From: Candidatus Nanopelagicales bacterium
Lineage (GTDB): Bacteria; Actinomycetota; Actinomycetes; S36-B12; UBA5976
NCBI GenBank assembly: GCA_018402365.1
Contig: JAGYJD010000005.1
Location: forward strand, 11,123 to 75,122
Direction of reading: 5' to 3'
DNA: 64,000 nucleotides
The notes under the pieces are model-generated. The model made no database searches, was not told the origin of the DNA, and saw nothing but the letters and a program-made list of their open reading frames with translations. The position numbers and the translations under genes were made by a program. Below are positions 10,298 through 42,999 of this stretch, one piece after another (within the stretch, counting starts at the first letter, position 1; each line of letters opens with the position of its first letter).

Positions 10298-10330
10298 TTA
10301 AATAAAAAGCCTTCCAACTCGTCACGTGCG

Positions 10331-10355
10331 AAAAGACCTGTCAAATCGGCAGGTC
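10331..10355 (-). terminator. candidate intrinsic terminator after the 10394..11179 gene
   Basis: On the minus strand GACCTG-ccgatttga-CAGGTC is followed by TTTTCG. The stem is short (6 bp). Confidence 0.4.
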
Positions 10356-10393
10356 GTGCCCTTATTGTTGCATGAGCCGCCATACTCGCATCT

Positions 10394-11179: not shown

Positions 11180-11218
11180 ATGCCTTAGAGAGCAAAAATC
11201 AGTTTTAGGTTTCTTAAA

Positions 11219-12361
11219 TTATATTTTGTTGCGTAATTCGATTACAGCTTTTTCTAAAATATTCGAAACTTGTTCAAATTCTAATAAAAATCCATCATGG
11301 CCGAATTCACTTTTTATTACCTCTAAAGATTGAGCGGTGGGTATCAAGTGCACCAATTCATGTTGCTGGCGTAGCGGGTAAAGCCGGTCGGTATCTACTC
11401 CTGCGATCACAAAGTTAGCTTTGATACCCGAAAGCGCTTGCGCAATCCCCCCACGATTCTTACCAACATCAAAAGTGCTCATCGCGTCGGTTAACACTAT
11501 GTAACTATTAGCATCAAATCTTCTAGCTAATTTGTTAGCGTGATGTGCTAAATAAGATTCCACTGCAAATAAACTCTCGCCTTCACTCTGCGTGCGGCGT
11601 CCAAAGCGAGAATCTAGTTCTGCTTCTGATCGGTAAGTTAAGTGAGCAAATTTTCTAGCGAGACCTAAGCCCACATGAGGCCCTGCCCCTGGTGCTTTGT
11701 GGTAGTAATCCCCATTATTCCAATTTAAATCTGATTGAATGGCGTCAATTTGTGCTGATTGGGTAGCAATTTGATCGGCACTAGCGGCGGCACTAGTTGC
11801 GATCACAAATCCGGTATCTAAACTCTCGCTAAATTCGACTGCCCACTCTAAAACTCTCATTCCGCCCATAGATCCGCCCATGATCATGGCAAATTTTTCA
11901 ATTTCTAAATACTCAGCTAATAGTTTTTCTAATCGAACTTGATCGTTGATAGTAATTCGCGGAAACCTACTGCCCCAAGGCTTTTTATCTGGTGCCAAAC
12001 TCGCCGGCCCGGTAGTGCCCTGGCAGCCTCCCAGCACATTGGCGCAAACCACAAACCATTCTTTAGGGTCAATCGCTTTACCTTCGCCAATTAAGCCATC
12101 CCACCAGCCTGGCGTTAAGTGTCCCGCTTCAATTTCTCCAGAAACGTGTGAATCCCCCGTCAAAGCGTGAGCCACATAAATTGCATTTGATTTATTTCCA
12201 TTCGCCTCGCCCCATGTTTCATAGGCAACAGTTACCTCTTGAAAGATGAATCCGTTTTCTAATTCAAAGTTTTCAAAACGAGCGAATTTTCTTTTACCTA
12301 TCTCATCCCCCTCCCGCCAGGCGCCGCTGGCAGGAGGTGGGGACGAATAATCAATCGGCAT
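11219..12361 (-). CDS. metX: homoserine O-acetyltransferase
   Basis: Alpha/beta hydrolase with GGSMGGM nucleophile elbow, ALTGDSH and GHDGFL motifs typical of MetX(A). Lies directly downstream of metY. Confidence 0.9.
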   Translation of the reverse strand: MPIDYSSPPPASGAWREGDEIGKRKFARFENFELENGFIFQEVTVAYETWGEANGNKSNAIYVAHALTGDSHVSGEIEAGHLTPGWWDGLIGEGKAIDPKEWFVVCANVLGGCQGTTGPASLAPDKKPWGSRFPRITINDQVRLEKLLAEYLEIEKFAMIMGGSMGGMRVLEWAVEFSESLDTGFVIATSAAASADQIATQSAQIDAIQSDLNWNNGDYYHKAPGAGPHVGLGLARKFAHLTYRSEAELDSRFGRRTQSEGESLFAVESYLAHHANKLARRFDANSYIVLTDAMSTFDVGKNRGGIAQALSGIKANFVIAGVDTDRLYPLRQQHELVHLIPTAQSLEVIKSEFGHDGFLLEFEQVSNILEKAVIELRNKI

Positions 12362-12367
12362 CTTGAA

Positions 12368-13663
12368 TTAGGCGCCCTTCGCGGCTCTAAAACCGGTTTC
12401 TAAATCGGCCAAGATGTCGTTAATGTTTTCTAAGCCAACCGCTAAGCGAACTAAACCAGGAGTTACCCCAGCTGTTAGTTGCTCTTCGGGTGTTAGTTGT
12501 GAGTGAGTGGTCGAGGCAGGATGAATTACCAATGAACGCACATCACCAATGTTGGCAACGTGAGAGTGTAATTCAAGTGCATCTACAAACTTTTGACCAG
12601 CTTCGACTCCACCTTTAATTTCAAAAGATAGAACCGCACCGGTACCTAGTGGTGCATATTTCTTACCCAAGGCATGCCACTTGCTATCTGGCAAACCTGC
12701 GTAATGAACCTCTGACACCTCATCGCGAGTGGTAAGCCATTGCGCAACCGCTTTAGTGTTTTCAATGTGGCGCTCAATTCGCAAAGATAAGGTTTCTAAA
12801 CCTTGCGCAATCAAGAAAGCATTGAAGGGTGAAACCGCTGCACCTAAGTCGCGCAAAAGTACAATTCTGGCGCGCAAGATAAAAGCTAATTCCCCTAAAG
12901 CTTCGGCATAGACCAAACCGTGATACGAGGGATCAGGAGTGTTGTATTGCGGGAATTTCTTTGGATCTTTAGCCCAATCAAATTTTCCGCTATCTACAAT
13001 TACTCCGGCAATTGCGGTGCCATGGCCACCGATGTATTTAGTTGCCGAGTGCACCACGATGTCAGCTCCGTGTTCAAAGGGGCGAATCAAATACGGGGTA
13101 GCGACAGTGTTATCGATAATCAATGGCACACCAGCAGCATGTGCTACTTCGGCAACCGCTGAAATATCCAAGATTTCATTTTTTGGATTTGCAATGCTTT
13201 CCCCATAAAGAGCCTTAGTGTTTGGGCGAATCGCCTTCTTCCAAGAGGCTGGGTCTCCGGGATCATCCACAAAAGAAACTTCGATGCCGTACTTAGGCAA
13301 GGTGTGATGAAACAGATTGTAAGTTCCGCCATACAAAGCTGGGGATGAAACAATGTGATCACCTGCTTCTGCCAAGTTCAAAATCGCATATGTTTCAGCA
13401 GCTTGTCCTGACGCTAACAACAAAGCCCCGACTCCACCTTCAAGTGAAGCAATTCGCTCTTCCACCGCACTTTGAGTTGGATTCATTATTCGGGTGTAAA
13501 TGTTGCCTGGTTCTGCTAACGAAAACAGATCAGCCGCATGCTTGGTATCACGAAATGTGTACGAAGTTGTTTGATAAATAGGTAAAGCTCTGGCATTTGT
13601 TTGTGAATCTGGCGATTGTCCGACATGAATTTGTCGGGTTTCAAAACTCCAACCTTGACTCAT
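12368..13663 (-). CDS. metY: O-acetylhomoserine aminocarboxypropyltransferase (sulfhydrylase), PLP-dependent
   Basis: Cys/Met-metabolism PLP family (SATKYIGGHG lysine motif, ETRxIHxGQ start). Start set at ATG 13663 (MSQGW), preceded by GAAAAGGAAA; the longer track ORF uses a TTG at 13693. Confidence 0.9.
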   Translation of the reverse strand: MSQGWSFETRQIHVGQSPDSQTNARALPIYQTTSYTFRDTKHAADLFSLAEPGNIYTRIMNPTQSAVEERIASLEGGVGALLLASGQAAETYAILNLAEAGDHIVSSPALYGGTYNLFHHTLPKYGIEVSFVDDPGDPASWKKAIRPNTKALYGESIANPKNEILDISAVAEVAHAAGVPLIIDNTVATPYLIRPFEHGADIVVHSATKYIGGHGTAIAGVIVDSGKFDWAKDPKKFPQYNTPDPSYHGLVYAEALGELAFILRARIVLLRDLGAAVSPFNAFLIAQGLETLSLRIERHIENTKAVAQWLTTRDEVSEVHYAGLPDSKWHALGKKYAPLGTGAVLSFEIKGGVEAGQKFVDALELHSHVANIGDVRSLVIHPASTTHSQLTPEEQLTAGVTPGLVRLAVGLENINDILADLETGFRAAKGA

Positions 13664-13834
13664 TTTATTTTCCTTTTCTTCTAAGTGCGGCAATCAGGCG
13701 AGTGCCGTCTTTGGACACCTGCGATGAATTTGAAATACCAAAAGTTACCCAAAATTGAGTGGAGTTTTTGATATTTATAAATACGTCGCCTCAGTGCCCC
13801 TTTTGCTGACGGGGCCTTGCCTGATGCAAGACCC

Positions 13835-13940
13835 GCGCTTGCTCGAATACTCGAGCCTGGTCTCATTCCGGAGCACCCCACCGCGGTGGAGGGTTGCCGC
13901 TCAGCTAGCCGGTGCTTGTCGCTGAGGCTCTTAACCTTGA
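13835..13940 (-). promoter_or_regulatory. SAM-IV riboswitch in the metY-metX leader
   Basis: The minus strand reads GGUUAAGAGCCUCAGCGACAAGCACCGGCUAGCUGAGCGGCAACCCUCCACCGCGGUGGGGUGCUCCGGAAUGAGACCAGGCUCGAGUAUUCGAGCAAGCGCGGGUC. It contains the SAM-IV core blocks GGCAACCCUCC / GCGGUGGGGUGC / CCGGxxUGAxACCAGG / GCAAGCGCGGG as I remember the Rfam RF00634 consensus. Confidence 0.8.
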
Positions 13941-13973
13941 AGAGAAGATTACCCCAAAGAATGCGCTAGGGCA

Positions 13974-14975
13974 TCAGATGGGTCCGAAACAATCTGCGAA
14001 CTTCCAAGGCGGAAGCCCACTTTTTATAGCGCTCATCGTCAATAGCCCTAAGCGATAACTCGCATCGATATTTAAAGCTTGATTAACCGCCGCCTGAGCC
14101 CAGACCGACTCACCCAGCTGCCATAACCAGATCCCCAAAATAGTTAAGACCGCCTTGGCTTCAGCCTTGGGCGCGTTTTGAATTAAGGGCAGCAAACGGG
14201 TCTTTAGCGAATGAAGCAAATTCAAGGGTTCTTGCGAAATTTGAATTTCTCGCAGCACTTCGCTGATCAATTTATCTCGTAGTGAAATTTCTTTAGAGAT
14301 CAAAATAATTTCAGCTTGGGCTAGTTCATTCAAATCTTCACTCTGATTAAGTAAATTTACATAGCCTCGGTTATATAGATTTTCATTCCAATTTGAATTT
14401 TTTGCCCTATTTTTTGACTTTTCTAACTTTGCGATAGCTTTTACCAGTTTTGGGTTTTCTGGCTTAGAAATAAAATATTGCTCAATTTCTTCTTTGTTAG
14501 CTAAAGCAGATTTTCCTTGAGAAATTAATTGTAACTTCTCAAGTGAAGTATCTCTTGGTAGAGCAAAACCTTCGCTGGGACAACACTCGCCATCTTCACA
14601 GAGCAGCGATCCATACCGATCCCCCTCTACCCACAATGCTTCGCTAATTTCACAAATTTCATTTTGGGCTTTAAGTAACTCATTTATTGTTGGACGATAT
14701 TGCGGCCAATTACTTTCTGCGTAAAGAGCGGTCAGCACCCCATCGATACTTGAATTTTCTTTAGCTTTTCGCAAAGCTTCCATCGCATTTTCGACTAACT
14801 GCGCTTGCGCTATCTCTGCCAGATCTATTCGAATTGCTACTACTACCCGATTGTTTTTACTATTGAAGGCAACCAGCACCAGGCTGTTGAGCGGCATAAA
14901 GCCTAAGAGATACGGTATTGCGGCTAAAAGGCTAGCTGGGCCTTTTGGTTTTAGGATTGAATTTTGTGCGTTCAT
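13974..14975 (-). CDS. DUF4192 domain-containing protein
   Basis: N-terminal LLAAIPYLLGFMPLNSLVLVAF is the hallmark start of the actinobacterial DUF4192 family. Start probably MNAQNS (14975); the ORF maximum is 15002. Confidence 0.7.
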   Translation of the reverse strand: MNAQNSILKPKGPASLLAAIPYLLGFMPLNSLVLVAFNSKNNRVVVAIRIDLAEIAQAQLVENAMEALRKAKENSSIDGVLTALYAESNWPQYRPTINELLKAQNEICEISEALWVEGDRYGSLLCEDGECCPSEGFALPRDTSLEKLQLISQGKSALANKEEIEQYFISKPENPKLVKAIAKLEKSKNRAKNSNWNENLYNRGYVNLLNQSEDLNELAQAEIILISKEISLRDKLISEVLREIQISQEPLNLLHSLKTRLLPLIQNAPKAEAKAVLTILGIWLWQLGESVWAQAAVNQALNIDASYRLGLLTMSAIKSGLPPWKFADCFGPI

Positions 14976-15052
14976 GCTTTCTAGAATGAAGCAAAGACGC
15001 AACTAGCAACAGAAAATTATTAAACCTATGGATAACTTTGCGCTGTGTATAA

Positions 15053-15532
15053 CTAGTCGACTAATTTAACGGATTTAATTGTGGCGTTCCAATTACCGCT
15101 GGGGGCCATCACTTCTACCACATCGCCCTTTTTGGCGCCCATCAAAGCTTTGCCAAGTGGTGAGTCCGATGCGATTCGCTCATCGTCTAAGTGTGCTTCA
15201 ACTGGATGAACTATCTTGACCTTAAATTTGTCGCTTTCGGTGTGCACGCTCACTGTGCAGCCCAAAGAGACAGTGCCATCAAAAGCTTCAACATCAATTT
15301 CGCCAGCCATCGCTATTACAGAGTCAAGCTCGTCAGCCTCTTCGGTGAGGCGGGTAAATTCTTGGACGATTCCTTCGTCACGATCTGTTTCGCCAATTAA
15401 GGGTTTGAAGCCTGGCAGAACTTCGTTTCGCAAGTGGTCAATTCTCACCTGCAACTCAGCCTTACCGGCTTTGGTTAGGACTAATTTATTTAAGTCGCCA
15501 GCCATCCGATTGCTCCTTTTAGTGGAACCCAC
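15053..15532 (-). CDS. GreA/GreB-family transcription factor paralog (Rnk/Gfh-like)
   Basis: The C-terminal GreA/B domain is recognisable (SPLGKALMGAKKGDVVEV). The N-terminal coiled coil lacks the canonical DxxENxxY acidic tip and has ETDRDEG instead. Confidence 0.65.
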   Translation of the reverse strand: MGSTKRSNRMAGDLNKLVLTKAGKAELQVRIDHLRNEVLPGFKPLIGETDRDEGIVQEFTRLTEEADELDSVIAMAGEIDVEAFDGTVSLGCTVSVHTESDKFKVKIVHPVEAHLDDERIASDSPLGKALMGAKKGDVVEVMAPSGNWNATIKSVKLVD

Positions 15533-31960: not shown

Positions 31961-34516
31961 TTAATCCACTTCACCGCGTAGCGCACTGAGAGTGTCAACT
32001 AATTCTTCTGGTTTGGCTAAAACTTCTCTGGCTTTAGACCCTTCACTGGGCCCCACGATTCCGCGACTTTCCATCAAGTCCATTAGACGTCCTGCTTTAG
32101 CAAATCCCACTCTTAATTTTCTTTGCAGCATTGATGTTGAACCCAATTGCGTTGAAACAACTAGTTCAGTTGCTGCTAACAACATATCGATATCAGCGCC
32201 AATATCGTTTTCGATATTGCTGCGCACAGTTTGTGGTTGTAAAACATCTTCACGATATTCAGGCTCACCTTGTGCGGTCCACGAATTTACCACGGCGCGA
32301 ATTTCTTTTTCACTAACAAAAGCACCTTGAATGCGAATTGATTTTGACGCACCCATTGGCAAAAAGAGGCCATCGCCTTGGCCCACTAATTTTTCAGCAC
32401 CAGCTTGATCCAAAATAACTCTTGAATCAGCTAAAGAAGAAGTAGCAAAAGCTAAACGAGAAGGAATGTTTGCCTTAATTAATCCGGTTACCACATCAAC
32501 CGAAGGTCTTTGAGTAGCAATAACTAAGTGAATACCAGCTGCACGTGCCAACTGGGTAATTCTCACAATTGAATCTTCTACGTCTCTTGGGGCCACCATC
32601 ATTAAGTCAGCCAACTCATCAACAATTACCAAAAGATATGGATAAGTTTTTGGCTCTGGCATTTCTTCACTCTTGGCCAAAACTTTGCCTTGCTTTACTG
32701 CCTTGTTGTAATCATCTAGATGTCTAAAGCCATGTGCGTGCAATGCGTCATAACGCATATCCATTTCTTTTACAACCCATTGCAAAATGTCCGCGGCTTT
32801 TTTAGGGTGGGTAACAATTGGTGTAATTAAATGAGGCACACCAGCGTAATTACTTAACTCAACTCGTTTTGGATCAACCAAAACCAGTCTCACATCTTCT
32901 GGGGTTGCCCTCATCAAAATAGAAGTGATGAGTGAATTGATGCAACTTGATTTACCCGAACCAGTTGACCCAGCCACCAAAAGGTGTGGCATCTTTGCCA
33001 AGTTAGCAACGATGGTGTGACCTTCTACGTCTTTACCTAAACCGACTATTAAGGGGTGGGTATCATCTGTGGCAACTGCGCTTTTTAATAAGTCATGTAA
33101 CGCTACTAATTCACGATCTGAATTTGGTATCTCAACACCGATCGCGCTCTTGCCTGGGATCGGACTCAAAATTCTCACATCAGCCGAAGCCACCGCATAA
33201 GAAATATTTTTACTTAACGCCGTAACCCGCTCTACCTTTACGCCGGTTCCCAGCTCTACCTCATAGCGGGTAACGGTAGGTCCGCGAGAAAAACCTGTCA
33301 CCTGCGCATCAATATCAAATTGGGCAAATACTTGCGTTAATGCCTCAACCACTTGGTCGTTAACCTTGCTCTTAGCTTTGGGCGCTCCCCCTGGATTTAA
33401 GCAATCAGCAGAAGGCAATTTGTAGTTATAAGCCGAAGAAAGCGTTAATTGCCTTGCCTTAACTGGAGCTTTAGCTTTTGAAACTTTGATGGTCGGGATC
33501 GGCATGGTCTCATCATTTGCCTCAACCGTGATTGGAATTGGCATAGTTTGATCAATCTCTGCTTCAATTTGCTCTTCATCTACTAGTAATGGTGAGACAT
33601 CAAAAGGCTCATCTGCAAAGGCTGATTCGATAATTTCGACTTCATCGGTATCTTCAAATTTAGGAAACAACTTGCTAAAAAAACTCTTCTTTTTGGCAAC
33701 TGGCTCTTCTACTAATTCTTCGTCTTCATCATCTGCTTCAATTACCGCATCGTGCACCCCGGTAAACACCTCATCAACTGCCCGAACTAAATCAGCATCA
33801 GCCTTCTTAGGTGCCCGCTTCAAATTAACCTTGGGCATCGAACTCTTTATTTGCATAAAGAAAACACCCACTGGGGCCATTTTGCGTGGTATGGCTGTAA
33901 TTGGCGTTTTAGTCGTTACTAGTAGACCAAAAAACAGTAATAAAAACAGTAATAAAGAAGTGATCACACTATTACTTAGCGTCACTAGAGGCGCTGAAAC
34001 CAACCAACCCAGCCAGCCAGCCCCTGCCTGCATCGCCAAAACTCCATCAGCTGGGATTGGTAAGTCTTGCAAAATATGCCAAAGCCCCGCAACTGAAATC
34101 AAAATCGCGCTTAATCCAATAACTACTCTTGGTCCGTCACCTTTTTTGGTTGGATTTCTAAAACTGCTCCAAGCCCCCCAGATCATTACCACCGGAGCTA
34201 ACACTGAAAGTGAACCAACCGCCCCGCCAATAACCGTGCGTGAAAGATTTGTTAGTGGGCTCTCAACATAAAACCAAACATCTGCCGCGACAATAATTGT
34301 CATTGCTAAAAGTAATAAACCCAAGCCATCTCGTCGTTGCGCTTGGTCTATCTCTTTGGCTCCACGCAAAACCGTGCCTAAAGCACGAGCAACTGCGCTC
34401 CAACCCATACCTATTAATAGAGCAATTCGGCCTAAAACCAACACCACAGGATTGGGCCCCGCAGGTCTTTTTCTACCCCTACTTTGGGCGCGCGAAGGTG
34501 TTTTAGTTGCCATCAC
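31961..34516 (-). CDS. ftsK: DNA translocase FtsK
   Basis: N-terminal TM helices, a long acidic linker, a motor domain with Walker A GSTGSGKS and Walker B VIVDELADL, and a C-terminal gamma (KOPS) domain SxLQRKLRVGFAKAGRLMDxME. Confidence 0.95.
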   Translation of the reverse strand: MMATKTPSRAQSRGRKRPAGPNPVVLVLGRIALLIGMGWSAVARALGTVLRGAKEIDQAQRRDGLGLLLLAMTIIVAADVWFYVESPLTNLSRTVIGGAVGSLSVLAPVVMIWGAWSSFRNPTKKGDGPRVVIGLSAILISVAGLWHILQDLPIPADGVLAMQAGAGWLGWLVSAPLVTLSNSVITSLLLFLLLFFGLLVTTKTPITAIPRKMAPVGVFFMQIKSSMPKVNLKRAPKKADADLVRAVDEVFTGVHDAVIEADDEDEELVEEPVAKKKSFFSKLFPKFEDTDEVEIIESAFADEPFDVSPLLVDEEQIEAEIDQTMPIPITVEANDETMPIPTIKVSKAKAPVKARQLTLSSAYNYKLPSADCLNPGGAPKAKSKVNDQVVEALTQVFAQFDIDAQVTGFSRGPTVTRYEVELGTGVKVERVTALSKNISYAVASADVRILSPIPGKSAIGVEIPNSDRELVALHDLLKSAVATDDTHPLIVGLGKDVEGHTIVANLAKMPHLLVAGSTGSGKSSCINSLITSILMRATPEDVRLVLVDPKRVELSNYAGVPHLITPIVTHPKKAADILQWVVKEMDMRYDALHAHGFRHLDDYNKAVKQGKVLAKSEEMPEPKTYPYLLVIVDELADLMMVAPRDVEDSIVRITQLARAAGIHLVIATQRPSVDVVTGLIKANIPSRLAFATSSLADSRVILDQAGAEKLVGQGDGLFLPMGASKSIRIQGAFVSEKEIRAVVNSWTAQGEPEYREDVLQPQTVRSNIENDIGADIDMLLAATELVVSTQLGSTSMLQRKLRVGFAKAGRLMDLMESRGIVGPSEGSKAREVLAKPEELVDTLSALRGEVD

Positions 34517-34798: not shown

Positions 34799-36478
34799 TT
34801 AGGCCTCAACGACTACCGGAATAATCATAGGTTTTCTGCGGTGTTGCTCGGCGACCCACTTGCCTGTTACGCGGCGCACGATTTTTTGCAAGGTGTGCTG
34901 GTCAACAACGTCGGTTTTCAACGCATCTTCCAGTGCGTTTTTAATCAATGGAACTACTTTGTCAAAGACGGCTTCGTTTTCTGAGAACCCTCGCGCATGC
35001 ACTTCGGGGCCAGCTACAACTTTGCCTTCAACCGCATCAACTACCACTACCACTGAGATAAAACCTTCTTCACCCAAAATACGACGGTCTTTCAAAGATG
35101 TTTCAGCGACCGAGCCCACACTTGAGCCATCCACAAACACATAACCACACGGCACTGATCCAACTATTTTTGCTTCACCTTTATATAAATCTGTCACTAA
35201 GCCATCTTCAACCAAAACAACATTTTCGATCCCGGTTTGCTTACCTAGGCGGCTATTGGCAACCAAATGTCTTGGCTCACCATGCACTGGCATTAAGTTT
35301 TTAGGTTTAGTGATGTTATAAAAGTGCAGTAATTCACCCGCAGCAGCGTGACCTGAGACGTGCACTTTGGCATTACCTGAATGCACAACTCTTGCACCAA
35401 GACGAGTTAAGCCATTGATTACTCGGTTAACTGAATCTTCATTACCCGGAATCATTGACGAAGCCAATATCACTGTGTCGTTTTCAGTTAAACGAATTTT
35501 GTGATCCATCCCTGCCATTCGGCTTAACGCTGCCATTGGCTCACCTTGAGAACCGGTAGTAATTAAGACAACTTCATTGTCAGCAAAGGATTCGACTTTA
35601 TCTAAATTAATCATTACGCCAGGTGGAACATCAAGATAACCTAAATCTGAAGCAATCTTCATATTGCGAACCATCGAGCGCCCCACATAGGCAACTTTGC
35701 GACCGTGTATTGATGCAGCGTTGATAACTTGCTGGACGCGATGCACATGAGAGGCAAATGAGGCAACCACTACTCGCCCGCGAGAAGAGAGAATCACACC
35801 TTCTAAAACACCTTGAATATCTTTTTCCATTGCAACAAACCCAGGCACCTCTGCATTGGTTGAATCACAAAGCAAGAGATCAATACCTTCATCACCTAAA
35901 CGGGCAAAACCATTTAAATCAGTGACGCGACCATCAAGTGGTAGTTGATCCATCTTGAAGTCGCCAGTGTGCACAATTGTTTGATCAAAAGCTTTTATAG
36001 ATAGCGCTAAAGCATCTGGGATTGAGTGAGTTACTGAAAGAAAGCCGATCTCAAAGTCGCCTATAGATATAGTGTCGCCTTCTTTGACTCCCCGTAAGTC
36101 TGCATCAATTCGATGCTCTGAAAGCTTGGCTTCGACAAAAGCTAGACACAATTTTGAACCATAAATTGGCACTGCCGGGATTTCTCTCAATAGATACGGC
36201 ACCGCGCCTATGTGATCTTCGTGTCCGTGAGTTAAAACCACACCCGCTACTTTTTGCCACTTATCTCGCAAATAATCAAAATCGGGCAAAATTAAATCTA
36301 CCCCTGGCTGCACATCATCTGGAAACAAAACTCCAACATCAACAATCAAGATCGAGTCTTTAGTTTCGAACACGGTCATGTTGCGACCAATTTCACCGAT
36401 GCCACCCAGCGGAATAATCCGCACGGTTTCGTTATTTAATTGCGGCGGTAATGGAAACTCAAAATGTGGATGGGTCAA
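34799..36478 (-). CDS. rnj: ribonuclease J
   Basis: Metallo-beta-lactamase HGHEDHIG, beta-CASP and C-terminal domains. 559 aa. Overlaps the dapA stop by 4 bp. Confidence 0.95.
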   Translation of the reverse strand: MTHPHFEFPLPPQLNNETVRIIPLGGIGEIGRNMTVFETKDSILIVDVGVLFPDDVQPGVDLILPDFDYLRDKWQKVAGVVLTHGHEDHIGAVPYLLREIPAVPIYGSKLCLAFVEAKLSEHRIDADLRGVKEGDTISIGDFEIGFLSVTHSIPDALALSIKAFDQTIVHTGDFKMDQLPLDGRVTDLNGFARLGDEGIDLLLCDSTNAEVPGFVAMEKDIQGVLEGVILSSRGRVVVASFASHVHRVQQVINAASIHGRKVAYVGRSMVRNMKIASDLGYLDVPPGVMINLDKVESFADNEVVLITTGSQGEPMAALSRMAGMDHKIRLTENDTVILASSMIPGNEDSVNRVINGLTRLGARVVHSGNAKVHVSGHAAAGELLHFYNITKPKNLMPVHGEPRHLVANSRLGKQTGIENVVLVEDGLVTDLYKGEAKIVGSVPCGYVFVDGSSVGSVAETSLKDRRILGEEGFISVVVVVDAVEGKVVAGPEVHARGFSENEAVFDKVVPLIKNALEDALKTDVVDQHTLQKIVRRVTGKWVAEQHRRKPMIIPVVVEA

Positions 36479-37374
36479 ACTTCAACTCCCCCAGCGCGCA
36501 ATGATGCAACCAACTCAGCTACTTGAGCATCGTCAGCTGCTACCAACGGCAACCGCGGGGATCCTGCCGGTAATTTTTTCAAATTTAAATAAGCCTTAAC
36601 GCTCATCACACCTGGCATTCTGCCCATCACGCCGTAATAAACCGGAGTTAATTCTTTATGCATTTTAGTAGCAGCTGCTACCTCACCATCAAAATACAAA
36701 CCCATCATTTTGCCAATTCGATCGGCAACTACGTGCCCAACCACACTCACACAACCCACCGCACCAATAGTCAATAGTGGCAAATTCAAAATATCGTCAC
36801 CAGAAAACCATTGCAATTTAGAATTAGTGATTACTCTGGATGCTGCTTCAAAATTATTTTTAGCATCTTTATTTGCCATAATTCGCGGATGCTCAGCTAA
36901 CTTCAACATGGTGTCAACTTCAATCGGCACCCCGCTTCTACCCGGAATGTCATACATCATCAAAGGTAAGCCGCAACCGTCTGCCACCGTTGTAAAGTGA
37001 GCGATCAATCCAGCTTGCGTTGGTTTGTTGTAATAAGGCGTCACAACTAAAATTGCGTCCGCGCCAAGTCGCTCTGCATCTTGGGCCAACATCAAGGTGT
37101 GGGCAGTGTCGTTAGAGCCAACTCCGGCAATTACTTTTGCTCGAGATCCCACTGCCTCGATCACAGCTTTTAAAACTTCATTTTTTTCATCTTCAGTTGT
37201 GGTGGCAGATTCGCCGGTTGTGCCATTAACCACTAAACCATTGTTACCAAGGTCGACCAAATAAGAGGCAAGCTTCGCAGCCCCCTCAACATCCACCGAA
37301 CCATCAGCCTTGAACGGCGTGACCATGGCAGTAACCATGTTGCCAAACGGGGTGATCGGAAAACTCATAGTCAA
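36475..37374 (-). CDS. dapA: 4-hydroxy-tetrahydrodipicolinate synthase
   Basis: GTTGES, YNKPxQ and catalytic-Lys region (MANKDA) motifs. 299 aa. Confidence 0.95.
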   Translation of the reverse strand: MTMSFPITPFGNMVTAMVTPFKADGSVDVEGAAKLASYLVDLGNNGLVVNGTTGESATTTEDEKNEVLKAVIEAVGSRAKVIAGVGSNDTAHTLMLAQDAERLGADAILVVTPYYNKPTQAGLIAHFTTVADGCGLPLMMYDIPGRSGVPIEVDTMLKLAEHPRIMANKDAKNNFEAASRVITNSKLQWFSGDDILNLPLLTIGAVGCVSVVGHVVADRIGKMMGLYFDGEVAAATKMHKELTPVYYGVMGRMPGVMSVKAYLNLKKLPAGSPRLPLVAADDAQVAELVASLRAGGVEV

Positions 37375-37764
37375 AGGTTAGTGCAAACCCCCTCCAGGCG
37401 AGAAATTCAATATATGGCTTTTTGAGCAAAGTTGTTTTCTTGGTGAAATCTTGAATCTCCCTGCAAATGAGAGACTTTATTCTTGAGCGACCTTTTTCTC
37501 AAAACCAAACCCAGGGTCTATATAAGAGAAAAAGTCCTTTATTTTTGAGCCAATCGTTACCTGTCGTTACTTTTGAGAGAATACCAACTAAAAAGTCTTA
37601 AAATGAATAAAATGCGGAGATAAATTTTTTGAAAATAAATTTTCTCACTCAAAAGAATTTTGCCCCTAAGTGGATGTAGCCCATAAAGGTGTAGGTTTTC
37701 GAACTAATATTTTAGCTTTTGAGGTTCCGGGTTAGGTCTAGAGTTTAGGATTAAAATCAAGATT

Positions 37765-38505
37765 CTAAAGTTTAGAGAACTCTAGAGATTTGACTAAGTG
37801 CTCTATTCCGGCGGTGAGAGCCCTTTTTGAATAATCATCCTTAGCTCGCTCCCCACTAATTCCGATCGAAATGCTGTCATTGCTATCTGGCAAAAAGATG
37901 GCCTTGGCAAGGCATTGCACTCCCACTAAGTATTCGCCATCGTCCACCGCAAAATCACAACTTGCTTCAATACTTTTTTGTAATTGGTCTTTTTGAGTGA
38001 TAGTTTTTTCGGTCAAAGAATTGAGTTTGTGCCCAGCTAGATAATCCTGCAATTGTGCTTCTGGCAAAGAGGCCAAGGTTGCCTTACCCAACGCGGTGGC
38101 ATGCGCCGCTTCATCTAACTCAACCCACAATTCAATTTTTTTGGCCTCGGGATGTTCCACCATCTCTACCAAGCTCATTTTTCCTTCGTGATACAAAGAT
38201 AAAAATACGGAGCAATTCGTATACAGTGCCAAACTTTCTAAAATAGGACGGGCTTTCATCGCCAGATTATTTTGAAATTTGACACTAGTTACAGCATTTA
38301 ATCTAGGACCAAGTGAATACTCGCCGCTCTTATCTTTAATCAAGTATCCGTCGTGTACCAAAGTTCGTAGCAAATGATAAACAGTTGAAAGTTCTAAACG
38401 AGTTTGATGAGCAATTTTTTTGGCGCTGACCGGCAGGATTTCACCCGCGACACATTCGACTACTCGCATCGCGCGCTGGACAGACTGAATTAGGGTCTCT
38501 GCCAC
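37765..38505 (-). CDS. IclR-family transcriptional regulator
   Basis: N-terminal winged HTH (SAKKIAHQTRLELSTVYHLLRTLVHDGYL) and a C-terminal IclR effector domain. 246 aa. Confidence 0.85.
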   Translation of the reverse strand: MAETLIQSVQRAMRVVECVAGEILPVSAKKIAHQTRLELSTVYHLLRTLVHDGYLIKDKSGEYSLGPRLNAVTSVKFQNNLAMKARPILESLALYTNCSVFLSLYHEGKMSLVEMVEHPEAKKIELWVELDEAAHATALGKATLASLPEAQLQDYLAGHKLNSLTEKTITQKDQLQKSIEASCDFAVDDGEYLVGVQCLAKAIFLPDSNDSISIGISGERAKDDYSKRALTAGIEHLVKSLEFSKL

Positions 38506-38647
38506 ATCACCCCCAACAGGTAACCTAAAAACTTAGCAAAACTTGTGCCCCCTGACTACCCCCCAAAAGTGAAGCATTTTCACCATTTGAAATCACAAAT
38601 CTCAAAAGCACTTAACAGGTGGGGCTTTTTGCTGGTTACATTTGTAG

Positions 38648-39286
38648 ATGATCACTGTAATTCCTGAGGCACTGTTAATCCCAGCGGGTAGCTACTTTAT
38701 TAGCGATTCGGACCAGAAACAGGAGGAGCCGACAGAATTTCGAATCAGTAAAAACTTAATTACCAACTCTGACTTTTATCAATACGTGGACGACACTTCT
38801 AGTCACAAAAAGTTCCCACTTCATGAACAAATTCGCGAAATTTCTCACTTCGATGATTTTCCGGTAGTGAATTTAGATTGGTATCAAGTACTCAACTACT
38901 GCAAGTGGCTTGGTGAAAAAACTTCTCTAAATATTGATTTACCTACCGAACGTCAATGGGAACGAGCTGCTCGAGGATTTGACGGTTCGCTCTATCCATG
39001 GGGTGATTTTTACGAACCAGAACGCTCCCCTTCTTTGGACGCTCAATCAATGTCAGCTGTACCAATAGGTAGTTATTTAACTGGCGCCTCACAATTCGGA
39101 GTTTTGGACCTAACCGGCAACGTCTGGCAATGGACCAAAGATAAAACCCAATCAGAAGAAATAGTTTTGAAAGGAGGCTGCTGGCTAGATGCGGCATGGG
39201 GTTTAAGAACTAATCGCTTTTTACTCGCTGATCCAAATCTGGCAACTAACACCACAGGATTTCGATTCGTAATCAACGAAAGGTGA
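38648..39286 (+). CDS. short formylglycine-generating-enzyme (SUMF1/EgtB/PvdO) family domain protein
   Basis: PVVNLDWYQVLNYCKWLG, LPTERQWERAARG, YPWG, GNVWQWT, LKGGCW and GFRFV follow the FGE-sulfatase fold motif order. It is only 212 aa. Confidence 0.75.
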   Translation: MITVIPEALLIPAGSYFISDSDQKQEEPTEFRISKNLITNSDFYQYVDDTSSHKKFPLHEQIREISHFDDFPVVNLDWYQVLNYCKWLGEKTSLNIDLPTERQWERAARGFDGSLYPWGDFYEPERSPSLDAQSMSAVPIGSYLTGASQFGVLDLTGNVWQWTKDKTQSEEIVLKGGCWLDAAWGLRTNRFLLADPNLATNTTGFRFVINER

Positions 39287-39289
39287 TAA

Positions 39290-39688
39290 ATGATCGAAGT
39301 AACAGTAGAAGATGTTTGGAAGTCATTAAAAACGGTTTACGATCCATGTTGCGCTGATCGCGGTATCAGCGTGGTTGACATGGGTGTAGCAGAAGACGTC
39401 ACAATCGATAATGACGGAACCATCCGAGTTAAGTTGGTACTTACAACCGGCTGGTGTCCGTTCGTCTCGAGTATGGAAGACGCTATTCCTGCAAAACTAA
39501 AAGAAGATTTTGGTGCAGAAAAAGTTATTGTGGAATCCGTTTGGGATCCCGTCTGGACTACAGATCGACTATCGGAATTCGCTAAAGAGAAGCTCTCTAT
39601 GCCCCTTGAGCAACTCTTGCCGCTGCGTGAAGCGCGAATCAAACAAGAGAAAGCGAATGCAAATAACGAAAGTGAGGTAGCAGTATGA
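39290..39688 (+). CDS. DUF59 (SufT/PaaD-like metal-sulfur cluster assembly) family protein, variant motif
   Basis: VYDPCCADRGISVVDMGV and LTTGWCPF correspond to the DUF59 DPE...DLG and T..CP motifs. Starts 3 nt after the FGE-like stop. Confidence 0.65.
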   Translation: MIEVTVEDVWKSLKTVYDPCCADRGISVVDMGVAEDVTIDNDGTIRVKLVLTTGWCPFVSSMEDAIPAKLKEDFGAEKVIVESVWDPVWTTDRLSEFAKEKLSMPLEQLLPLREARIKQEKANANNESEVAV

Positions 39689-40722
39689 CCGCATTGTTCC
39701 CAGGAGCGAAAACTCGCGGCAAAGGTTCTGTGCCGGCGTTTGTCTTTGACGGAGTTTGTCACCTTTTTAACTTCGACAAAAAGAACGCACTCGGCGGACC
39801 AGGTGAAATGTTTGACGAGCACCTCTATGCCTTTCATATGTTTATGACACGTGAGGGTGAGCGAATTCTCTCGCGCGAAGAATTCTTCAAAGAGTGGAGC
39901 GTTGACGAAATCGCTGAGATGGTGTTTGAGCAATCAGATACCGACATGATTGTGGCGCAACCTTTACCACTAACCGACCTGTTTCATGACGGGCTTTCCC
40001 CTTGGGAGAAGTGTGCCCAGATGGCAGCAAAGCACCCAGACAAAGCAGTTTGGTGGGGTTCGGTAAATCCGCTGGAAGGTAAAAAAGCAATCGACTTAAT
40101 GACCAAACAAGTCGAAGAGTATGGAGCGAAAGGATTTAAGTTCTATAACGTTCGCTACGACTACGGTCAACCCTTCCCTTGGAGAATGGATGATCCAAGA
40201 GTTGCCTTTCCAATTTTTGAGCACGCACAAAAATTGGGAATCAACTTGATCGGTGTTCACAAAGGTGTGCCACTTGGCCCACAACCAATCGAACACACCA
40301 GAACATTCGACATGGACGGAGCCGCAGCAAACTTTCCGGACATCAACTTTGTGATCTTCCACGTTGGTCTGCCATGGCTAGATGAAACGCTTTGGCAAAT
40401 CATCAGGTTCCCTAACCTCTACGCTTCAATTGCCGCAACGGTGAACTTTATCTCGCGTCAACCGCGAGTGTTTGCCGAAATCATGGGCAAGTTGATGTGG
40501 TGGGCCGGTGAAGACAAGATCCTCTTTGGTGGTGAATCACCAATTTGGCATCCGCAGTGGGCGTTAGAAGAATTCTGGAACTTCCAGCTACCAGAAGATA
40601 TCGTCGCCGAACGCGGATACCCACAACTAACCGAACAAGCAAAGCGCAAGATCTTGGGTGAAAACCTACTTCGCTTGCACGGTATGGATGTAGAAAAAAC
40701 TAAGAAGAAATTCGGGTACTAA
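39685..40722 (+). CDS. amidohydrolase-2 (ACMSD/LigI/LigW-type TIM-barrel hydrolase or decarboxylase) family protein
   Basis: 345 aa, FDGVCHLF N-terminal strand, GFKFY, IGVHKG, VIFHVG, ILFGGESP and the terminal KILGENLLRL pattern. ATGA overlap with the DUF59 gene. Confidence 0.65.
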   Translation: MTALFPGAKTRGKGSVPAFVFDGVCHLFNFDKKNALGGPGEMFDEHLYAFHMFMTREGERILSREEFFKEWSVDEIAEMVFEQSDTDMIVAQPLPLTDLFHDGLSPWEKCAQMAAKHPDKAVWWGSVNPLEGKKAIDLMTKQVEEYGAKGFKFYNVRYDYGQPFPWRMDDPRVAFPIFEHAQKLGINLIGVHKGVPLGPQPIEHTRTFDMDGAAANFPDINFVIFHVGLPWLDETLWQIIRFPNLYASIAATVNFISRQPRVFAEIMGKLMWWAGEDKILFGGESPIWHPQWALEEFWNFQLPEDIVAERGYPQLTEQAKRKILGENLLRLHGMDVEKTKKKFGY

Positions 40723-40735
40723 ACCCGAAACCAAT

Positions 40736-40770
40736 AAAAGAACCCTCACAGCTACGTGAGGGTTCTTTCT
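40736..40770. terminator. bidirectional intrinsic terminator between the convergent amidohydrolase and thyX genes
   Basis: AAAA-GAACCCTCAC-agctac-GTGAGGGTTC-TTTCT: a perfect 10-bp GC-rich stem flanked by an A-run and a T-run. Confidence 0.8.
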
Positions 40771-40772
40771 AA

Positions 40773-41486
40773 TTAAGGCGAAACTCTTTTATTAGCCACA
40801 AAAGCCTCATGGGTTATCGGCATCACTTGGGCAAAGTGCTCTTCATACTTCTCAGCTACCATCTCGATCTCACGCTGCGGATATGACGGAAACAGCGAAT
40901 CCTCATCTTTTTTACGCAATGACAAGAAGTTCATTAAAGCGCGAGCATTCATCGTCACATACGCCGTTGAATAAATAGTTACTGGCAAAACCCCGCGAGC
41001 AACTTCCCTCGCCACACCGGCTGCCAACATCGATTCATACTGTATATATGCAGCTTCACATGATTCTCTAAAAGCCTTATCTGTTACGTCAAACTGCTCT
41101 TTGGTTCCATCTTCAAAGTTATAGGCCCCAGCCTTGCCCACTTGTACTAATTTGCGCTTTTGGTCCGGAACATAAAATTCTGGGTCTAGTACCCGGTATC
41201 TTCCTGATTCTTCGTTATAGCTAGCAACTCGATGGCGCATATGCTCTCGCCACACAAAGATCGGCGCCTTCACATAAAAGGTAAACACCGAATGCTCAAA
41301 AGGTGTGCCGTGACGCTCACGCATCAAAAAGTTAATTAATCCCTTAGATTCGCTGACCGGCCCAACCGACTCTTTGGACCTTTCCCCCGCGGTCGAGACC
41401 CTTGCCGCCCAAACCACATCTTCATCACTGGCCGAATGCTTGACCAACTCAACTGTCACATCGGATCTGAATTTAATCTCGCTCAT
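40773..41486 (-). CDS. thyX: FAD-dependent thymidylate synthase
   Basis: ThyX motif RHRxxSxxxxSxRY is present as MRHRVASYNEESGRY. 237 aa. Confidence 0.95.
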   Translation of the reverse strand: MSEIKFRSDVTVELVKHSASDEDVVWAARVSTAGERSKESVGPVSESKGLINFLMRERHGTPFEHSVFTFYVKAPIFVWREHMRHRVASYNEESGRYRVLDPEFYVPDQKRKLVQVGKAGAYNFEDGTKEQFDVTDKAFRESCEAAYIQYESMLAAGVAREVARGVLPVTIYSTAYVTMNARALMNFLSLRKKDEDSLFPSYPQREIEMVAEKYEEHFAQVMPITHEAFVANKRVSP

Positions 41487-41647: not shown

Positions 41648-42325
41648 ATGCACCTGAAATATATCTTTTTTGACGTCAACGAAACCCTTACCGACTTTTC
41701 TCAACTCTCAAAGGCTATGGGAGAGCTTGGCTTGTCGAATTCAGATATGCAACTTTGGTTTTCGCGAGTATTACGTGATGGATTTGCCATCACCTTGACC
41801 AATCAGCCAGTCAACTTTGCGCAAACAGCAGAAGTAGCCTTAGCCAATTTATTGCAAGAGCGCAATCTAAGTGTTACCCCAGATCAAATCACCCGAACCA
41901 TAAAACAAATTGCTCAATTGCCCGCCCAAAAAGGTGTGGCAGAAGCTTTCGCTCAATTAAAAGATCTAAATCTCACTCTCTCAACTTTAACCAATGGCTC
42001 AACTGCTGCAGCAGAATTTATTTTTAATCAACTAGAAATTAATCATTTAGTCTCTAATATTTTAAGCGTGCAAGATAATGCTAAATGGAAACCTCACCTG
42101 GAGGCTTATCAATTTGCGCTAAGCAAAACTGGCGCCAGTGCTAAAGAGTCAGCCCTAGTGGCAGTACACCCTTGGGATATTCATGGTGCTAATCAAGCGG
42201 GCTTAAGCACAGTTTGGATAAACAGAAAACAACTCACCTACCCCAGCTATTTTTCACCACCAACTGCGAGCATTACTGAATTCTCTGACCTCGCTAAAGC
42301 ACTTTCTGAAATAAAACCTAACTAA
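41648..42325 (+). CDS. HAD-superfamily hydrolase, haloacid dehalogenase type II-like
   Basis: FFDVNETL (DxxxT motif I), TLTNGS (motif II), a late K...H/D region. 225 aa. Confidence 0.7.
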   Translation: MHLKYIFFDVNETLTDFSQLSKAMGELGLSNSDMQLWFSRVLRDGFAITLTNQPVNFAQTAEVALANLLQERNLSVTPDQITRTIKQIAQLPAQKGVAEAFAQLKDLNLTLSTLTNGSTAAAEFIFNQLEINHLVSNILSVQDNAKWKPHLEAYQFALSKTGASAKESALVAVHPWDIHGANQAGLSTVWINRKQLTYPSYFSPPTASITEFSDLAKALSEIKPN

Positions 42326-42327
42326 AA

Positions 42328-42999
42328 ATGCTCAAAACAACTAAAGCGCTATTAATCGCCTCACACTTTATCCCCACCATGCTGGTGAGCACCATTTCAT
42401 TTCTTATTTCACTCATTCACTTCTCGCCCTCGCAATCAGCACAAATAGCACTAGCCATCTTTGCTGGCCAACTAGTAGTTGGTTGGAGTAATGACCTACT
42501 TGATTACCCACTCGATTTAGCTGCCTATCGCACCCATAAACCATTAGTAGCAAATCAAATTACCCCAAATTTTTTAAAAAAATCCATATACATCGCACTC
42601 TTTGCCGCGCTTGGCTTATCGCTACTTAGCCCACTAGGGCTGATCGGAACGTTGATTCATTTCTTAGGTATCTTTAGCGCAACTTTATATAACTTAAAAT
42701 TAAAAGCTACCATTTACTCACCACTGCCGTATATCTTTTCTTTTGCTGCGTTACCCTGGGCGATTTATCTCGCCGCTAGCGAAACTCCTCCGCTTTGGCT
42801 CTACCTGGCATTTGCGCTGTTTGCTACCGCCTTTCACTTTTTAAACGTCTTAAAGGATTTATCTTGGGACCTCTCACAAAATGTCTTAGGGCTACCGCAG
42901 CGAATCGGGCGCATAAATAGCATTCTTATTGCAATCAGCTGCACCATGGCAGGTTTGATCACCTTGATTATTTATGCCCCTTCTCTGCTTGAGGCATAA
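42328..42999 (+). CDS. compact UbiA-family prenyltransferase
   Basis: WSNDLLDYPLD (NDxxDxxxD) and a second KDLSWDLSQNVLGLPQRIG motif. Polytopic, 223 aa. Starts 2 nt after the HAD stop. Confidence 0.65.
   Translation: MLKTTKALLIASHFIPTMLVSTISFLISLIHFSPSQSAQIALAIFAGQLVVGWSNDLLDYPLDLAAYRTHKPLVANQITPNFLKKSIYIALFAALGLSLLSPLGLIGTLIHFLGIFSATLYNLKLKATIYSPLPYIFSFAALPWAIYLAASETPPLWLYLAFALFATAFHFLNVLKDLSWDLSQNVLGLPQRIGRINSILIAISCTMAGLITLIIYAPSLLEA

Follow-up and report, generated by a model that had tools for sequence, protein, structure and literature searches.

A conserved gene trio encoding FGE-fold, DUF59 and amidohydrolase-2 proteins at the thyX–dapA junction is related to a gene pair of alkane monooxygenase clusters

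A three-gene operon encoding a protein of the formylglycine-generating enzyme (FGE)-sulfatase fold, a DUF59 protein and an amidohydrolase-2 protein (hereafter AH2) lies between thyX and dapA in a 64,000-nucleotide stretch of a Candidatus Nanopelagicales genome (NCBI GenBank assembly GCA_018402365.1, contig JAGYJD010000005.1, positions 11,123 to 75,122 of the forward strand), which we call the window. Here we show that the three genes form a conserved unit found in more than one phylum, that the encoded proteins diverge in step and that AH2 is homologous to an amidohydrolase encoded next to DUF59 genes in propane and acetone monooxygenase clusters. We also show that a metal-site motif of AH2 covaries with a cysteine motif of its partner. 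With moderate confidence, we propose that the trio encodes an inducible metalloenzyme of three components whose substrate is a small oxygenated compound.

A conserved three-gene unit

The operon is encoded on the + strand and comprises the genes for the FGE-fold protein (38648-39286, 212 amino acids (aa); PF03781, E = 2.4e-31), the DUF59 (FeS_assembly_P) protein (39290-39688, 132 aa; PF01883, 3.9e-10) and AH2 (39685-40722, 345 aa; PF04909, 1.1e-31, with 111 bits against a cut-off of 26.4). In NCBIfam, all three proteins fall below every model cut-off and AH2 has no match. The first two genes meet at TGA-TAA-ATG with a 3-nucleotide (nt) gap, and the second and third share an ATGA overlap (GTATGACC). 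Both junctions read as claimed by a first-pass annotation of positions 37765-40772, which had been made from the sequence and had stressed this tight coupling; its other features were likewise all found where it had placed them, and its family assignments hold by profile search.

We ran iterative hidden Markov model (HMM) searches on the open reading frames (ORFs) of 100 loci and counted gene order in the 98 that had been retrieved through AH2 or the FGE-fold protein, almost all of them metagenome-assembled genomes (MAGs) or metagenome contigs. The order FGE-DUF59-AH2 on one strand was found in 84 of the 98, and overlapping or near-abutting junctions are conserved among the loci. Whether genes of the PF03781, PF01883 and PF04909 families keep company elsewhere had been left as a question by the first-pass annotation; they do, with order and strand preserved, and the linkage is far beyond what chance would give unrelated families. 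Its remark that the trio is not a described module also stands, as no function for the trio was found in the searchable literature.

The trio occurs in Thermoleophilia, Acidimicrobiia, Chloroflexota (Anaerolineae) and a few Nanopelagicales. AH2 relatives were found in 310 species-level genome stretches (one genome per species), of which the best 80 were examined; these are 78-97% identical and come mostly from Thermoleophilia. Of 1423 AH2 hits, the best 120 come from Anaerolineae, Chloroflexales, Acidimicrobiia and Actinomycetes, and none of these is less than 73% identical; single AH2 clusters in metagenome protein sets contain as many as 1279 sequences. The FGE-fold protein, by contrast, has few close homologues: six clusters reach at least 60% identity, after which identity falls to 36%. 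Every contig examined around them carries FGE, DUF59 and AH2 in order. The trio sits between rnc and fpg in an Acidimicrobiia MAG and is also present in an Anaerolineae MAG. On a 3.25-Mb contig (L010) the order is DUF59-AH2-FGE; the genes flanking the module there (8972-15396) encode a divergently transcribed ferritin/rubrerythrin-like protein, two imelysins (Peptidase_M75) and a di-haem oxidoreductase, an iron-acquisition-type neighbourhood.

The three proteins co-diverge at very different rates. Distance matrices for 77 sequences (76 loci and the window) are correlated with a Mantel r of 0.81-0.84, which 0 of 999 permutations reached, and the mean p-distance is 0.12 for AH2, 0.28 for DUF59 and 0.40 for the FGE-fold protein. 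Median identities to the window proteins are 82%, 60% and 33%, respectively. Among acI relatives, AH2 is 97% identical, compared with 90% for rnj, 84% for dapA and 60-83% for the IclR regulator described below. Recent horizontal transfer was considered as the cause of this high AH2 identity and rejected, because the co-inherited FGE-fold and DUF59 proteins are far more diverged and the GC content of the cassette (0.42-0.48) is no different from that of its flanks. A uniformly recent transfer does not account for the pattern, and AH2 is under unusually strong constraint.

Several proteins in public databases (P0121, P0125, P0129, P0130, P0133 and P0143) are apparent DUF59-AH2, AH2-cupin or FGE-DUF59-AH2 fusions with out-of-frame linkers or internal duplications, and P0129 begins inside the FGE-like gene. 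They look like artefacts of MAG indels, frameshifts or read-through where two genes overlap, and Rosetta-stone inference could be misled by them. We considered a natural DUF59-AH2 fusion as evidence of interaction and discarded it as such an artefact; the AlphaFold2 model of P0133 has a predicted local distance difference test (pLDDT) score of 61, and of about 45 in its AH2 part. Among the genes that neighbour the trio, a same-strand aldehyde dehydrogenase gene follows it in 10 loci, cupin genes in about 17 and CN-hydrolase genes in 7; the NCBIfam matches of these neighbours are non-specific.

Kinship with monooxygenase-linked genes

In tblastn searches of plasmids, AH2 has about 40 full-length homologues, which are 31-38% identical to it and have E values as low as 1e-65. 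The amidohydrolase linked to the prm and mim monooxygenase genes is 34-38% identical to AH2 over 92-95% of the query (E 1e-58 to 1e-65), and a DUF59 gene adjoins the AH2 homologue in every fetched locus except two that have an Nfu-like partner. In Paracoccus aminophilus, Bradyrhizobium and Ponticoccus, the clusters encode the alpha subunit, reductase, beta subunit and coupling protein of a soluble di-iron monooxygenase (SDIMO), the amidohydrolase, the DUF59 protein (annotated there as 'iron-sulfur cluster assembly protein'), GroEL and an NAD(P)-dependent alcohol dehydrogenase (ADH). In an unannotated Caballeronia record, tblastn located SDIMO alpha and GroEL homologues on either side of the pair. 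Thermomicrobium roseum has the arrangement IclR-DUF59-AH2-ADH, with an ADH 59% identical to that of the Paracoccus cluster, and Rhizobium sp. N324 has AH2-DUF59-glyoxalase I-2-hydroxyacid dehydrogenase. The pair is accompanied by genes for aldehyde dehydrogenase, short-chain dehydrogenase/reductase (SDR), AOR, acyl-CoA synthetase and thiolase in Haloarchaea, and by SDR and epoxide hydrolase genes in Rhodococcus.

Closer to the window is an FGE-less subclade with the arrangement IclR-DUF59-AH2, which includes Nonomuraea gerenzanensis and in which AH2 is 71-74% identical to that of the window. Two JGI metagenome contigs carry this FGE-less module in the order IclR, DUF59, AH2 (L189, 1-4955; L192, 1-5069), with an AH2 73% identical to that of the window. 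In both, the module lies directly downstream of copper membrane monooxygenase (CuMMO) genes (PF02461, PF04744) and two small unannotated ORFs, and in L192 a Zn-ADH gene follows it. Because the module in these contigs follows CuMMO genes, the pair is linked to two non-homologous alkane monooxygenases, SDIMO and CuMMO, as well as to ADHs and aldehyde dehydrogenases; it also occurs without a monooxygenase. The window system is a sister branch of the monooxygenase-linked type and not a member of it.

The pair has been noted downstream of prmABCD or mimABCD in Gordonia TY-5, M. smegmatis and Rhodococcus RHA1 without an assigned function (PMC6849523, PMC12783916, PMC9213486, PMC7176365). The amidohydrolase-like protein makes up 3.2% of the proteome of cells grown on 2-hydroxyisobutyrate, and growth on acetone likewise strongly induces its cluster (PMC7176365). 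The amidohydrolase is absent from a 2025 review of SDIMOs (PMC11825192). The searchable literature yielded no study of what the pair or the trio does, and neither AH2 nor the long form of the DUF59 protein is represented by an NCBIfam model.

Covariation of AH2 with its partner

The DUF59 protein of the window carries DPCC in place of the family motif DPE, together with GWCPF, as the first-pass annotation had pointed out; DPCC is a genuine family feature, present throughout the trio family. Cys56 is the family cysteine and is invariant in the alignment. The protein scores below the cut-offs of the SUF_assoc (63 against 143) and PaaD (44-48 against 108-180) models, and ORF listing and profile search revealed no adjacent suf or paa genes in the window.

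The type of partner varies with the metal-site motif of AH2. Where AH2 has HxH and a strand-8 Asp, the partner is a long DPE-type DUF59 protein of 246-273 aa (6 of 6 loci); where it has V-x-H, with a strand-8 Glu or no acid, the partner is a short DPC[CS]-type DUF59 protein (12 of 12 loci, and the window). An AH2 with A-V-H goes with an Nfu/NifU-like partner in two loci, one on a Shinella zoogloeoides plasmid (L183, 5986-7289) and one in Ensifer adhaerens (L188, 4983-6298); a CxxC motif was seen in the latter partner, the one of the two whose sequence was read. Because an Nfu/NifU-like protein can replace DUF59, these data suggest that the essential property of the partner is Cys-based handling of a metal or cluster. 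The covariation is what would be expected if cysteines of the partner compensate for ligands lost from AH2. The monooxygenase-linked DUF59 proteins (L018, 8000-8812; L019, 8002-8841; L017, 5231-5980) have a C-terminal extension of about 150-180 aa, and this extension of the long form has no Pfam or NCBIfam match.

AH2 is a conserved amidohydrolase-2 barrel with an altered HxH motif

AH2 is 77-87% identical across phyla, and an inter-phylum identity of about 77% is comparable to that of the best-conserved housekeeping proteins. When 1.84 billion representatives were searched exhaustively with HMMER, the full-length matches were either at least 64% or at most 42% identical; trio-type full-length AH2 amounts to essentially two 50%-identity clusters, and 190 representatives were matched overall at E <= 1e-30. 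The AlphaFold2 model built from a diverse alignment (pLDDT 94.1; predicted template-modelling score 0.92) is an eight-stranded TIM barrel.

Across 61 diverse homologues, H26, D87, K152, H226 and N244 are invariant, and the near-invariant residues include D22, N34, Y154, D170, H192, K193, D209 and H289. Strand 1 reads V24-C25-H26, the first His of the HxH motif being replaced by Val. The first-pass annotation had drawn attention to this VCHLF motif with its single His, and V-x-H is indeed a genuine feature of the family. In the DSSP string, H26, K152, H192 and H226 lie within strands 1, 4, 5 and 6 or at their ends, and Glu283 aligns with the canonical strand-8 Asp; the remaining set of H26, H192 and E283 would resemble a 2-His-1-carboxylate site. 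The top Foldseek match is 3IRS, with template-modelling (TM) scores of 0.66/0.80 and 20% identity, followed by gamma-resorcylate, salicylate and 5-carboxyvanillate decarboxylases, LigJ, LigY and LigI at 12-16% identity (probability 1.00). When the PDB was searched with AH2 by sequence or by profile, 3IRS was the only match (E 6e-8; profile 1e-11).

The FGE-fold protein has lost the catalytic features of FGE

The PF03781 match spans residues 23-208 of the FGE-fold protein (109.8 bits against a cut-off of 23.3), and the protein starts at the fold itself, with residue 23 aligned to profile position 29. The first-pass annotation had called the domain truncated, yet 212 aa is the usual length for this family, members of which typically have about 195-228 aa. 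A conservation analysis of 93 members showed that the family keeps only fold-defining motifs; C85 is the only Cys conserved at 90% or more, and C177 of the window protein is Ser in most members. We take the two catalytic copper-binding cysteines of FGE/SUMF1 to lie in the C-terminal GGS...C-H-x-S-Y-C segment (human SUMF1 position). The corresponding segment of the window protein reads GGCWLDAAWGLR, with W-L-D at the first catalytic Cys position, aligned to W-I-D of the inactive SUMF2. The best PDB sequence matches are SUMF2 (1Y4J, 3e-17) and ToxD (7SPQ, 6e-17).

EgtB, OvoA and SenA models give 39-55 bits against cut-offs of 360-420, that is, about a tenth. The protein contains no DinB domain and no DinB gene stands beside it in the window; nor is there a sulfatase among the genes scanned at 36.4-43.0 kb (the rest of the window being unscanned) or among the called genes of related loci. 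The statement in the first-pass annotation that neither partner is nearby therefore holds for the scanned genes at 36.4-43.0 kb. Because the catalytic Cys pair and DinB are missing and the EgtB, OvoA and SenA scores are low, the protein is unlikely to be an FGE or a sulfoxide synthase. The O2- and metal-dependent C-S or C-H chemistry that the first-pass annotation had suggested is not supported. From its sequence, the FGE-fold protein is probably non-catalytic. Its gene is dispensable in the FGE-less sister clade.

The cassette is an insertion at the thyX–dapA junction

In the window, dapA (36475-37374; DHDPS; TIGR00674, 2.1e-82) and thyX (40773-41486; Thy1; TIGR02170, 4.2e-59), both on the - strand and both exceeding the model cut-off, flank the cassette on the left and right. 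From the dapA start to the thyX stop we measured 3398 bp, in agreement with the separation of about 3.4 kb given earlier. Further to the left lie rnj (34799-36478) and ftsK (31961-34516), both on the - strand as determined by ORF listing and profile search. Beyond thyX, at 41648-42999 and outside the cassette, genes for a HAD-family hydrolase and a UbiA-family prenyltransferase are separated by 2 nt.

A synteny survey with thyX as query against metagenome contigs yielded 80 related loci, with thyX 68-95% identical, of which 68 were informative. In 49 of the 68, dapA lies 12-109 bp downstream of thyX and is followed by rnj where the contig is long enough; 4 surveyed loci have thyX-dapA gaps of 0.4-5.6 kb, and 15 loci with at least 2 kb downstream of thyX have no dapA. 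Homologues of IclR, FGE, DUF59 and AH2 were found in 0 of the 80 thyX loci. In the closest relative (L101; thyX 95% identical), thyX is followed by an amino-sugar/ABC-transporter/ROK island, and in a Nanopelagicales MAG contig (L021; AH2 97% identical) the trio adjoins the same island. The island (L101, 831-7242; L021, 1755-6875) contains genes for a SIS-domain protein, an LmbE-like deacetylase, a DgaE-like PLP lyase, a DegT aminotransferase, a Gfo/Idh/MocA oxidoreductase, an ABC sugar transporter and a ROK regulator. Another locus, L003, has the order rnj-dapA-NYN-IclR followed by the divergent FGE-DUF59-AH2 operon.

Because of the 49 abutting loci, the shared island of L101 and L021 and the gene order of L003, the thyX-dapA-rnj junction is ancestrally contiguous and thyX|dapA is a flexible islet in this acI lineage. 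The cassette is an insertion at that junction, as the first-pass annotation had held; with none of the 80 relatives carrying it, it is not a gene set that most Actinobacteria have here. Only one Nanopelagicales genome is among the best 80 of the 310 species-level AH2 hits, and the cassette is therefore rare in the order. Also in agreement with the first-pass annotation, no mobility gene, whether integrase or transposase, was found in the insert by ORF listing and profile search. Occupancy of the site is variable among relatives.

At the right edge of the cassette is a bidirectional intrinsic terminator hairpin with a 13-15-bp stem (40736-40769). Its arms (40737-40749 and 40756-40768) form a 13-bp inverted repeat without mismatches that is bordered by a run of A at one end and a run of T at the other, and the hairpin scores as a terminator, so that the strong bidirectional terminator of the first-pass annotation is confirmed. 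In L004 and L006, both of which are without thyX at that place, AH2 is followed by sequence that matches the 50-bp AH2-thyX spacer of the window at 82-84% identity; the terminator belongs to the cassette and travels with AH2 in these two loci.

The left edge lies in the AT-rich dapA-IclR spacer of 390 bp and is marked by a conserved non-coding element of about 90-100 nt (37489-37579), which is 3' of IclR and 115-205 nt upstream of dapA. Every relative carries the element immediately 3' of IclR, at 72-85% identity to the window, with copies at 6918-7001 in L003, 739-822 and 4060-4149 in L004 and 2562-2642 in L006; in L006 it is better conserved than the coding DNA of IclR and FGE. It holds TCGTTAC-n3-TCGTTAC and a promoter-like site facing dapA. 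In L004 the element recurs in direct orientation beyond the AH2 terminator, so that direct repeats bracket the cassette in that locus; the window has the left copy only. Rfam contains no match to the element, and neither strand shows a fold supported by covariation; the element may serve as a target for recombination or may be a dapA promoter that has been relocated. A derivation of the 390-bp spacer from the NYN gene of L003 was rejected by sequence comparison.

The IclR-family regulator (37765-38505, - strand, 246 aa) has an N-terminal helix-turn-helix (HTH) domain (HTH_IclR, PF09339, 2.1e-10) and a C-terminal effector-binding domain (IclR_C, PF01614, 1.3e-22). It scores far below the cut-offs of all NCBIfam equivalog models, among them BhcR (92 bits against 350) and PcaR/PcaU (87 against 285). 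The divergent intergenic region of 142 bp between the IclR and FGE genes (38506-38647) presumably contains the promoters and an operator. It is 73% identical in L003 and L004 and partly conserved in L006, and it contains one promoter-like site (38605-38576, - strand); with 6-nt seeds, no inverted-repeat operator was found in it. A divergent IclR gene is present in 14 of the 84 canonical-order loci and in all close relatives with enough sequence. The first-pass annotation had described the operon as IclR-controlled: the divergent gene is there, and control by it is presumed from this adjacency, which is found in only those 14 of 84 loci. We also rejected an anti-phage defence function, as PADLOC matches none of the three operon proteins; its sole hit is a marginal Csa3 match (8e-4) to the IclR HTH protein.

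Proposed function and alternatives

In the three-component metalloenzyme that we propose, AH2, a remodelled amidohydrolase-2 TIM barrel, would be the catalytic subunit, with His26 (strand 1), Lys152 (strand 4), His192 (strand 5), His226 (strand 6) and Glu283 (strand 8) as the putative retained site and the first His of HxH gone. The small Cys-rich DUF59 protein, with DPCC and Cys56, would bind AH2 and supply or co-ligate its metal centre, and the FGE-fold protein would be a SUMF2-like non-catalytic third subunit that offers a binding or scaffolding surface. The complex would convert a small oxygenated compound, most likely a low-molecular-weight metabolite derived from an alcohol, ketone or aldehyde, and the IclR protein may sense the substrate or a related molecule. 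The system is a three-gene branch of the amidohydrolase-DUF59 pair that stands beside SDIMO and CuMMO genes. This proposal is consistent with the association of the relatives with SDIMO-ADH-GroEL, CuMMO, Zn-ADH, aldehyde dehydrogenase, SDR and glyoxalase genes, and with the presence of an IclR gene beside 14 canonical-order loci and the FGE-less relatives. The conserved gene order, the co-divergence, the constraint on AH2, the covariation with the partner, the aldehyde dehydrogenase gene that follows the trio in 10 loci and the abundance of the amidohydrolase-like protein on 2-hydroxyisobutyrate also speak for it.

Several observations weigh against it. The 64-kb window contains no homologue of an SDIMO, a GroEL, an ADH, an aldehyde dehydrogenase or a cupin, and clustering of the neighbours in about 100 loci identified no further gene consistently linked to the trio and did not reveal a substrate. 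IclR is absent from most trio loci, and the CuMMO link comes from one lineage only (L189, L192). The motif covariation may represent only two or three evolutionary events, and the strand positions of AH2 rest on alignment and the DSSP string, not on coordinates. Cys25 of the VCH motif is Ala in the FGE-less subclade and is therefore not essential. The sole complex-related model, that of the artefactual P0133 fusion, gave no interface information. Elsewhere, DUF59 proteins are known as maturation factors and not as enzyme subunits (PMC4498308).

In the main alternative, which we consider unlikely, the DUF59 protein would supply a metalloprotein whose gene lies outside the cassette with iron or an Fe-S cluster, with AH2 and the FGE-fold protein assisting in maturation or repair, by analogy with PaaD/SufT and with the GroEL-like MimG of di-iron monooxygenase clusters. 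The best scores of the DUF59 protein are to SUF-associated, SufT and PaaD models, albeit below their cut-offs, and PaaD is needed in vivo, not in vitro, for the PaaABCE di-iron monooxygenase (PMC4498308). A GroEL-like chaperonin gene adjoins the related pair in SDIMO clusters, an Nfu/NifU-like Fe-S carrier can take the place of DUF59, ferritin and iron-uptake genes flank the module in one genome, and the Acidimicrobiia trio sits among housekeeping genes. However, the pair also stands beside a copper, and thus non-di-iron, monooxygenase and in clusters without any monooxygenase, and no conserved candidate client gene is found near the trio. The most constrained protein is AH2, not DUF59, and it retains catalytic-type residues; moreover, IclR control and the location in a flexible islet would fit a substrate-inducible function. 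A review reports active MimABCD in Escherichia coli with co-expression of the chaperone, the amidohydrolase going unmentioned (PMC11825192).

The remaining explanations have much less in their favour. Thiol or sulfur chemistry, with the FGE-fold protein binding a Cys- or His-derived substrate as in EgtB and OvoA or acting on the DUF59 Cys-Cys pair and AH2 cleaving the product, seems improbable: the weak matches to the C-terminal domains of OvoA, EgtB and SenA and the loose resemblance of the conserved DPCCxxR of DUF59 to a Cys-containing target motif are set against the missing DinB iron domain, bit scores of 39-55 where 360-420 are required, a family that conserves no Cys pair, a sister clade that does without the FGE-fold gene and the lack of recurring sulfur-metabolism genes near trio loci. 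We think it slightly less probable still that the cassette serves aromatic or pyrone catabolism of the LigI, LigW or ACMSD kind with O2- and metal-dependent chemistry by the FGE-fold protein, the function towards which the first-pass annotation had leaned. Aromatic decarboxylases, LigJ, LigY and LigI do follow 3IRS among the Foldseek neighbours of AH2, and the IclR protein is weakly similar to PcaR/PcaU; but the structural matches are remote (12-16% identity, TM about 0.5-0.6), PDB sequence and profile searches give only the uncharacterised 3IRS, and the FGE catalytic features are missing. Moreover, about 100 loci contain no ring-cleavage or other aromatic-pathway genes, and the relatives are found with gaseous-alkane monooxygenases, ADHs, aldehyde dehydrogenases and SDRs instead. 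That functionally unrelated genes merely came together at an insertion hotspot might be supposed from the unrelated inserts that this junction collects in relatives, but the same order in 84 of 98 loci from two phyla, the co-divergence of the three proteins and their conserved translational coupling exclude chance adjacency.

If the proposed metalloenzyme is the right interpretation, the trio offers an entry to an abundant enzyme system without an assigned function, and would bear on the amidohydrolase and 'iron-sulfur cluster assembly protein' genes of propane and acetone monooxygenase clusters, a prm/mim-linked pair that has been noted repeatedly since the first cluster was described and is still unexplained. 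The component protein families are already known; new, as far as the searchable literature goes, are the three genes as one unit, how widely this unit occurs, how strongly AH2 is conserved, the kinship with the prm/mim pair and the motif covariation, the last of which makes a concrete, testable structural prediction. For freshwater ecology, the cassette would be a niche-specific accessory function in streamlined acI genomes, with thyX|dapA as its flexible islet. A bolder version, in which the DUF59 protein is a permanent subunit that donates Cys ligands and the trio, with the monooxygenase-linked pair, carries out a step so far missing from the bacterial use of small volatile oxygenates, we put forward as a speculation with rather low confidence. 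If true, the substrates could be, for example, products of acetone or secondary-alcohol oxidation, and the capacity would be common among soil Thermoleophilia, Acidimicrobiia and Chloroflexota and scattered among freshwater acI bacteria.

Comparison with known systems

The closest solved structure to AH2, in both sequence and fold, is BB4693 of Bordetella bronchiseptica (PDB 3IRS/3K4W), a structural-genomics target that is shorter (281-291 aa) and about 20% identical; it has no known function and therefore gives no functional lead for AH2. ACMSD-type enzymes (gamma-resorcylate, salicylate and 2,3-DHB decarboxylases, LigW, IDCase, the LigJ hydratase, the LigY hydrolase and the LigI lactonase) share with AH2 the PF04909 barrel and, as placed by alignment and the DSSP string, a His ending each of strands 5 and 6 and an acidic strand-8 residue. 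They are only 12-16% identical to it, with TM scores of 0.5-0.6, and are missed by PDB sequence and profile searches. Unlike them, AH2 has Val for the first His of HxH, Glu for the strand-8 Asp, an invariant strand-4 Lys and an obligatory small Cys-rich partner gene.

The two partners also have known counterparts. PaaD and SufT share the PF01883 domain and the conserved Cys of the T-x-x-C-P segment with the trio DUF59 protein, which differs from them in having DPCC instead of DPE, sub-cut-off scores and no suf or paa genes nearby. SUMF2 (also known as pFGE) and ToxD are, like the FGE-fold protein, single FGE-fold domains, and SUMF2 shares W-[IL]-D at the first catalytic Cys position; the trio protein is shorter (212 aa), cytoplasmic (no signal peptide by inspection) and encoded by the first gene of an operon.

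The prm/mim pair has AH2 before DUF59, the reverse of the trio order, and has no FGE-fold gene. Its DUF59 protein is long (250-280 aa) with DPE, its AH2 has HxH and a strand-8 Asp, and it is embedded among monooxygenase, GroEL and ADH genes, none of which the window has. What the pair and the trio share is an AH2 that is homologous over about 94% of its length, a neighbouring DUF59 gene and the residues H26, D87, K152, H226 and N244, and some versions of the prm/mim-type pair also come with IclR and Zn-ADH genes.

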